Notes under the pieces: model-generated
Seen by the model: the letters and a program-made list of their open reading frames with translations, nothing else
What the model was told of the DNA's origin: nothing
Databases searched by the model: none
IMG/VR virus record: IMGVR_UViG_2585427734_000003
Coordinates: 1 to 7,330 of that record
Reading direction: 5' to 3' (one strand)
DNA from: a virus
Lineage: Monodnaviria; Loebvirae; Hofneiviricota; Faserviricetes; Tubulavirales; Inoviridae
DNA: 7,330 nucleotides
Made by a program: the position numbers and the translations under genes
In this document: piece by piece, positions 6,403 to 6,522 of the stretch
How the letters are laid out: every line of letters starts with the position of its first letter
Position numbering within the stretch: the stretch's first letter is position 1

Positions 6403-6522
6403 GTATACAAGAATATTTGGATACTTTATACAACAAGTGCAAACATGCATACAAGAGCACATCGCTATTTTTATGCAATGTAACTAACATGCATGAACCC
6501 AAAACACACAAAGACTAGATTT
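6403..6522. promoter_or_regulatory. Divergent promoter/operator region between gene II (minus) and the RHH-like gene (plus), with short direct repeats
   Basis: ATACAAGA at 6405-6412 and 6449-6456, with a variant ATACAACAAG at 6428-6437 (about 22 bp spacing). ACATGCAT at 6443-6450 and 6487-6494 (44 bp apart), plus TATGCAATG at 6472-6480. Both flanking genes start here, so promoters are expected, but no confident -35/-10 pair could be assigned by eye. Confidence 0.4.

Follow-up and report, generated by a model that had tools for sequence, protein, structure and literature searches.

In the Vibrio cholerae phages CTXphi and pre-CTXphi, immunity resides in the rstR-ig-2-rstA region, where the gene for a small repressor lies divergent from the replication gene across a control region of about 120 bp. 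The module is exchangeable among otherwise similar phages, which integrate at dif in tandem arrays. The classical repressors RstR-ET and RstR-class are of the helix-turn-helix type and 111–112 amino acids (aa) long (genes of 339 and 336 bp), and in CTXphi-ET LexA co-represses PrstA. Here, we describe a region of the same general layout in Escherichia coli. The DNA analysed, a stretch of 7330 nt referred to below as the window, comes from the chromosome of E. coli strain 300709 (NZ_CP025903.1), where a filamentous (Inovirus-like) prophage is repeated in tandem; the window corresponds exactly to one repeat unit. Within it, a control region of 120–130 bp separates the leftward gene II, encoding a rolling-circle replication initiator of the G2P family, from the rightward gene of a 67-aa regulator (Table 1), and a first-pass annotation had reported short repeats covering exactly that intergenic region. 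We consider it likely, with a probability of roughly 0.8, that these repeats are operators of the 67-aa protein.

By layout and homology, the control region reads as an immunity module of the RstR/ig-2 type. The divergent arrangement, the exchange of the module between related prophages and the dif integration in tandem arrays are all shared with CTXphi. The differences lie in the host, in the replication protein (Rep), which here is a G2P-type gene II protein and not RstA, and in the secretin, which the E. coli phage encodes itself. The 67-aa family is shorter than the classical repressors and models as ribbon-helix-helix (RHH). Unlike in CTXphi-ET, no LexA box (CTGT-N8-ACAG, at most one mismatch) was found between 6380 and 6530; the LexA site is a feature of one allele and not of the module as such. 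Systems in which a repressor has operators over a Rep promoter are already well known, whereas the 12-bp site described below was previously undefined: no operator sequence for this regulator family was found in the searchable literature, whose open-access coverage is incomplete, and searches with AF452586 and six motif strings returned nothing relevant.

A 12-bp motif recurs upstream of the regulator gene

Homologues of the 67-aa protein were collected from genomes and viral contigs, giving 25 loci, and from annotated phages. The DNA upstream of the regulator cannot be aligned among distant loci, yet all of them carry one short motif. A Gibbs sampler run on 21 upstream regions returned CTTG[C/T]AT[A/G]CATG on the gene II strand, a 12-bp pseudo-palindrome of the form CWTGYA.TRCAWG. 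The motif lies upstream of every well-sampled homologue, in E. coli, Pectobacterium, Lelliottia, Vibrio, Shewanella and phage If1. The window holds two full copies, designated O1 (CTTGTATACATG) and O2 (CTTGTATGCATG).

To score the window we used a held-out 12-nt weight matrix, trained on distant relatives only, with the window and its close kin excluded. O1 (17.7 bits) and O2 (17.4 bits) were the best two sites on both strands of all 7330 nt, with the third at 10.5 bits. When the intergenic region was shuffled 5000 times, only 16 of the shuffled sequences (0.3%) contained two sites of at least 12 bits. We regard this test, which is independent of the repeat statistics chosen post hoc, as decisive. 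Across 21 loci, the density of matches of at least 8 bits was 16.3 per kb within 175 nt upstream of the regulator, against 0.46 per kb in the remaining sequence, a figure that is partly circular since the matrix was trained on one site from each locus. Additional copies, the Vibrio cyclitrophicus phage L032 and phage If1 are independent of that training; in L032, two sites scoring 16.6 and 20.3 bits lie upstream of the Rep gene at a distance of 43 bp. The O1–O2 distance is 43–44 bp in 13 of 23 related loci, If1 included, and 35–54 bp in the others, apart from one doubtful assignment at 16 bp (L025). Among six close lineages, substitutions fall in the spacers (about 6433–6443 and 6457–6469) and in the leader of the regulator gene. 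The O3 block described below and a TTATACA block at the predicted −10 element are kept, as are O1 and O2, in which the sole change is an A/G exchange at the degenerate R position.

The first-pass annotation had quoted its repeats correctly: ATACAAGA is present at 6405–6412 and 6449–6456, ATACAACA at 6428–6435, ACATGCAT at 6443–6450 and 6487–6494, and TATGCAATG at 6472–6480. What it took for two repeat families are the right (ATACAAGA) and left (ACATGCAT) halves of one 12-bp motif. O1 contains the first copy of ATACAAGA together with the CAT of the gene II start annotated by PGAP, and O2 joins the first ACATGCAT to the second ATACAAGA. The proposed phasing of about two helical turns did not hold either, the true repeat distance being 44 bp and not about 21. 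The supposed variant copy, ATACAACA, was discarded, as it scores below 2 bits and coincides with the predicted gene II −10 region. A repeat search recovered AACATGCAT twice (6442 and 6486, offset 44) and the inverted pair TGCATACAA/TTTTATGCA.

Compared with 2000 dinucleotide-preserving shuffles, the stretch 6403–6522 contains three repeated 8-mers where 0.45 are expected (p about 0.04) and six repeated 7-mers where 1.5 are expected (p about 0.02). Repeat frequency is therefore above expectation, as the first-pass annotation had required, but moderately so (p 0.02–0.09 for single 8-mer measures). Two exact runs of at least 8 nt sharing the offset of 44 occurred in none of the 2000 shuffles and in 0.55% of the 120-nt windows of this genome. 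These counts were picked after the data had been seen; we treat them as moderate evidence and do not rely on them.

Two lesser elements accompany the full sites. A weak extra site or half-site, AGTGCAAACATG, abuts O2, and two other loci (L004 and L008) have comparable weak sites at 8 bp from their O2; the function of AGTGCAAACATG is doubtful because its sequence varies among close relatives. Nearer the regulator gene is a split operator, O3, with half-sites ATGCAA and CATGCATG on either side of the likely regulator −10 element, which takes in TATGCAATG and the second ACATGCAT. The O3 block, TATGCAATGTAACTAACATGCATG, is identical in five lineages with variable flanks, and the layout of half-site, TAGAAT or TAAAAT, half-site is also found in L005, L007, L008, L019 and L032.

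The motif follows the regulator across unrelated replication proteins

The regulator gene is divergent from a Rep gene in 16 loci with a gene II homologue detectable by tblastn (among them L002, L004–L007, L011–L019 and If1), in four with a distant G2P-type Rep (L008, L025, L027 and L028) and in three with an RstA-type Rep (L029, L031 and L032). Regulator and motif thus occur together next to G2P proteins too distant for tblastn to connect, and next to RstA of the Rep_trans superfamily. The converse case is provided by L003, a prophage of E. coli PEC148 at the same integration place. Its gene II is 77% identical, but it encodes a different 62-aa regulator and has an unrelated intergenic region, in which the motif has no match of at least 8 bits.

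We conclude that the ligand is probably the regulator and not the replication protein, since the motif spans unrelated Reps and is absent from L003. Of the two candidate ligands named in the first-pass annotation, the replication protein is thereby disfavoured: the repeats do not co-vary with the initiator, as G2P and Rep_trans proteins share them while a 77% identical G2P protein lacks them. The view of the repeats as an operator array for the RHH-like protein, in a divergent control region between that gene and gene II, agrees with both the co-distribution of the motif and the held-out matrix. Conservation of the repeats in related elements, which had been put forward as a check, was also observed, mostly as pairs 43–44 bp apart. 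The 157-aa open reading frame (ORF) downstream of the regulator is not co-distributed and occurs in few loci only.

Among the E. coli relatives, identity is 98% for the intergenic region together with the regulator and 79% for the gene II protein, the signature of an exchangeable module. Both this disparity and L003 indicate module swapping of the kind seen in heteroimmunity. The module itself was present in 5 of 5426 complete E. coli genomes. L003 has an intergenic repeated motif of its own at 7141–7263 (TTCTTAGATTCTCAGAAAT, CTGAGAAACTAAG and TTTCTAAGAATTTAGAGA), and these repeats are probably operators of a second immunity type. The L003 regulator starts MPTKHIND, resembling the primer-encoded start of RstR-calc (MATKHIKD), and E. 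coli prophages therefore appear to swap immunity modules of the kinds found in the CTX family.

The 67-aa regulator resembles RstR-6

Some CTXphi and pre-CTX records contain genes annotated rstR to which the regulator is 42% identical by tblastn (E = 9e-10); its identity to the RstR-like genes of the Vibrio anguillarum phages VAI1 and VAI2 is 40%. A published set of rstR alleles includes rstR-6, a gene of 192 bp whose primers encode MKKKYTSLRV... and ...DLKR (PMC11509585). In lux reporter assays, RstR-6 lowered its own ig-2(6)-lux signal from 2.18e5 to 1.94e4, an 11-fold effect that seven other alleles did not produce (PMC11509585, Table 2). The rstR-6 forward primer matches the start of the L032 homologue at 29 of 31 nt (blastn against phages); an exact search with the primer in IMG/VR gave no match. 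The tblastn and primer matches make the regulator a homologue of a recognised RstR allele, and we assign it provisionally to the RstR-6 family.

In the monomer model (predicted local distance difference test score, pLDDT, of 80), residues 1–12 are extended and are followed by helices at 13–30 and 36–59, which corresponds to the N-terminal beta-strand and two helices of an RHH protein, although the strand could form only in a dimer. On this model we scored the protein as structurally like solved RHH proteins; a Foldseek search returned no significant match. Pfam gave no match to the regulator, no RHH profile was hit by it or by 15 homologues at E values up to 5, and a sequence profile search of the PDB with the regulator gave noise only. 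The regulator thus models as an RHH-like protein while lacking sequence-profile membership in that superfamily.

RHH repressors, such as Arc and Mnt of P22, CopG of pMV158, omega of pSM19035 and the antitoxins MazE7, TacA and ParD, resemble the present case in having multiple short (12 bp), pseudo-palindromic operators, which overlap promoter elements including those of the regulator's own promoter. Besides the missing profile match, the 67-aa protein differs from them in its unusually long second helix (residues 36–59) and in its full sites, which are 44 bp apart and not adjacent subsites about one turn apart.

Promoter geometry and a proposed mechanism

O2 contains a TTGTAT hexamer that we predict to be the −35 element of gene II, followed at 18 nt by TATAAA as the −10 element. 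The corresponding pattern, TTG[C/T]AT of O2, then 17–18 nt, then TAnnnT, could be read by eye in the aligned sequences of about 14 divergent loci, and the predicted −10 element is invariant among close relatives. Promoter prediction, proposed in the first-pass annotation as a check, gave no help, since a strict sigma-70 and terminator consensus scan called no promoter in the control region; the hexamers are accordingly assigned from comparative conservation. This detailed promoter assignment is held with less confidence than the operator reading. Gene II transcription would start near 6418, placing O1 at about +8 to +19.

Translation of gene II probably starts at the ATG at 6393 (MFFDW...), because the upstream ATG is out of frame in L004 and alignments begin at residue 4. 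The PGAP start at 6402 was rejected on the former ground, and 6493 was rejected as a start for the regulator. With the start at 6393, O1 would lie in the leader and clear of the start codon. The promoter geometry, with O2 covering the −35 element and O1 falling just downstream of the predicted start, explains the constant 43–44 bp spacing more simply than helical phasing does. A DNA loop between O1 and O2 was also considered; 44 bp is short for looping, and promoter geometry accounts for the spacing.

In the mechanism we propose, the 67-aa protein, a repressor in the RstR-6 family, would bind, as a dimer or a larger oligomer, the 12-bp pseudo-palindrome at O2, over the gene II −35 element, and at O1, in the leader just upstream of the start codon. 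With both sites occupied, RNA polymerase would be blocked and the replication protein shut off, and with it rolling-circle replication and the expression of downstream phage genes. The outcome would be maintenance of the prophage and immunity to superinfecting phages with the same module. The O3 half-sites around the predicted regulator −10 element may in turn mediate negative autoregulation, which is suggested by their position on both sides of a weak −10 element and by the same layout in distant relatives. The promoter hexamers, the transcription start, the stoichiometry and the autoregulation are parts of the mechanism that we infer.

Weighing the alternatives

Several points weigh against the operator reading or its details. 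That the 67-aa protein binds the predicted sites is something we infer from the comparisons above. The gene II promoter proposed here matches 8 of 12 consensus positions, with an 18-nt spacer and a −10 element lacking the final T, and was missed by the strict scan; the predicted regulator promoter is weak, and the O3 half-sites, at 7.9 and 6.9 bits, fall below threshold. Assignment to the RstR-6 family rests on primer-encoded termini and a primer match. Finally, the If1 homologue has a different N-terminal strand (KRTTMAI) and yet the same motif, so that reading residues and site do not simply co-vary.

A repeat array adjoining gene II could instead represent iterons or origin-binding sites of the gene II protein within a plus-strand origin, and the origins of Ff phages do contain repeated gpII-binding sequences. 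The motif is nonetheless unchanged beside G2P and Rep_trans superfamilies, is missing from L003 and tracks the regulator in all well-sampled loci, and the structured element at 6743–6792, shared with the If1 intergenic region, is a better candidate for the origin; we therefore regard this possibility as very improbable. It is also unlikely, if somewhat less so, that the motif is a conserved host-protein site or plain promoter sequence (−35-like TTGYAT), with the small protein acting at some other place. The motif's TTG does double as a −35 element, and the hosts, all Gammaproteobacteria, could share a global regulator. Conservation, however, extends beyond TTGYAT to the full 12-bp palindrome, O1 is downstream of the predicted start, a position that requires no promoter element, and L003, with the same host and integration site and another regulator, is without the motif. 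LexA boxes and IHF- and CRP-like consensus sites were not found in the control region, and the homologous RstR allele represses its own ig-2 only (PMC11509585).

Chance likeness in AT-rich, low-complexity DNA would fit the modest single 8-mer statistics and the loss of the 6428 variant as a real copy. It is hardly credible in view of the held-out matrix test, the same-offset pair of runs absent from every shuffle, and the reappearance of the motif, with its spacing, in loci between which the rest of the intergenic DNA cannot be aligned. The palindromes might, lastly, act in single-stranded DNA (ssDNA) or RNA, for example as the minus-strand origin, as a signal for packaging or as a structured leader. 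Filamentous phage genomes use ssDNA hairpins for several functions, and O1 is predicted to lie within the transcribed gene II leader. Against this, a 12-nt palindrome cannot form a stable hairpin, it is the sequence and not the pairing that is conserved, stronger structures lie elsewhere (6746–6791 and the attP hairpin at 7250–7330), and Rfam found no family in the window; a role of this kind is most unlikely. Operators of the 67-aa regulator thus remain the reading we prefer.

For phrog_2503, a widespread family of small repressors from filamentous phages that includes an RstR allele of relatives of the cholera-toxin phage, this reading would supply a concrete operator sequence and a promoter layout, both open to test. 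With the site known, homo-immune inoviral prophages could be predicted, reporters or derepressed mutants designed, and annotation extended to the control regions of E. coli prophages integrated at dif and to that of If1, in which the gene is unannotated.

Phage If1 and a structured element after the regulator

If1 (Escherichia phage, Infulavirus) is a freely replicating phage and not a prophage. Like the window, it has an O1/O2 pair immediately upstream of a gene II homologue, with scores of 13.1 and 18.3 bits and a distance of 44 bp, as well as an unannotated regulator homologue of 61–67 aa (39% identity) in its annotated 'major intergenic region' (locus L030, U02303, 500–2700; about 5110–7310 of the If1 record). 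It differs in that the regulator gene lies about 1.9 kb from the operators, beyond a stretch encoding TnpB-like and IS200/IS605 TnpA-like proteins, and its immunity region seems to have been split by an insertion sequence. By eye, ORF348 in that stretch resembles TnpB/IS605 OrfB (…PPAYTSQRCACCGH…) and an unannotated 147-aa ORF resembles IS200/IS605 TnpA. The old annotation of If1 also seems to give gene II a truncated N terminus or a frameshift.

A broader and tentative possibility, which we think rather doubtful at present, is that the RstR-6-like RHH repressors form one cross-genus immunity group, spanning Escherichia, Pectobacterium, Vibrio, Shewanella and Alteromonadaceae phages with unrelated Reps and sharing both the operator and its 43–44 bp spacing. 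If1 would then derive from such a temperate phage, its repressor cut off from operators and promoter by IS200/IS605. If so, phages across the group should cross-repress, unlike in the allele-specific CTXphi paradigm, and the IS200/IS605 separation would explain the constitutive replication of If1.

A megablast search of the whole window against phages gave nothing beyond one 50-nt match to If1. This element, at 6743–6792, is 96% identical to If1 and lies directly after the regulator stop in the window and after the regulator homologue in If1. The segment 6746–6791 folds into two strong hairpins, CCGTGGG-aaac-CCACGG and GTTCGGG-N11-CCCGAAC, and as ssDNA is more stable than expected (z = −4.3), with none of 200 shuffles as stable. 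The hairpins at 6743–6792 have no T-tract, and the terminator scan called no terminator there. Replication origin, packaging signal and terminator are the candidate roles for this element.

Prophage context and gene map

The prophage array adjoins a true dif site (one mismatch to the E. coli consensus) at its left edge, at about 3786–3813 of locus L001, and the unit boundary of the prophage itself is dif-like. The element is therefore a dif-integrated prophage of the CTXphi type. Its genes and the features of the control region are collected in Table 1.

Table 1 Genes, predicted promoter elements and putative operators in the window
Feature	Position	Strand	Details
Secretin (pIV)	426–1616	minus	
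Zot/pI	1613–2656	minus	
DUF2523 (pVI-like)	2649–2942	minus	
pIII-like protein	2958–4463	minus	
Major coat protein	4514–4744	minus	
75-aa protein		minus	between major coat protein and ssDNA-binding protein in the gene list
ssDNA-binding protein	4992–5288	minus	
Gene II, rolling-circle replication initiator, G2P family	5278–6402	minus	Pfam G2P_X_C (6e-25) and Phage_CRI; phrog_702 (1.7e-104)
Putative operator O1	6400–6411	minus	full 12-bp pseudo-palindromic site; 18.3 bits with family matrix
Predicted gene II −10	6425–6430	minus	TATAAA, 18 nt downstream of TTGTAT in O2
Weak extra site or half-site	6436–6447	plus	abuts O2; 10.5 bits
Putative operator O2	6444–6455	minus	full site, 44 bp from O1; 17.6 bits with family matrix
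Predicted gene II −35	6454 to 6449	minus	TTGTAT inside O2
Putative split operator O3	6473–6499	.	half-sites at 6474–6479 and 6488–6495
Likely regulator −10	6481–6486 or 6485–6490		TAACTA or TAACAT, between O3 half-sites
67-aa regulator gene	6523–6726	plus	phrog_2503 (unknown function); RHH-like, RstR-6 family; proposed ligand

Also on the plus strand, the 157-aa ORF and an 82-aa basic ORF (window 6773–7246 and 4–252) lie in a GC-rich stretch (49–52% GC, about 34% elsewhere). The former has a weak, sub-threshold ATP-cone match and no PHROG match, and the 82-aa ORF, like it, is present in few related loci only.

A relative of the prophage, 81% identical, is a circular record of 7439 bp from E. 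coli A37 (NZ_CP195780.1, L002), deposited as a 'plasmid' and also found in the A37 chromosome; the circle probably represents an active filamentous phage in its replicative form. The record annotates the regulator gene with a shortened start.

The end of the unit (7250–7330 and 1–30) forms a long imperfect hairpin, GGCCGCTGCG…CGCAGCGGCC, with dif-like half-sites on its flanks, and looks like an XerCD attP in the style of CTXphi. The junction with the neighbouring unit reads AGTGCGCATAA-TGTGTT-ACACG…, and the last 82 nt of the window have a 97.6% match in many E. coli genomes.
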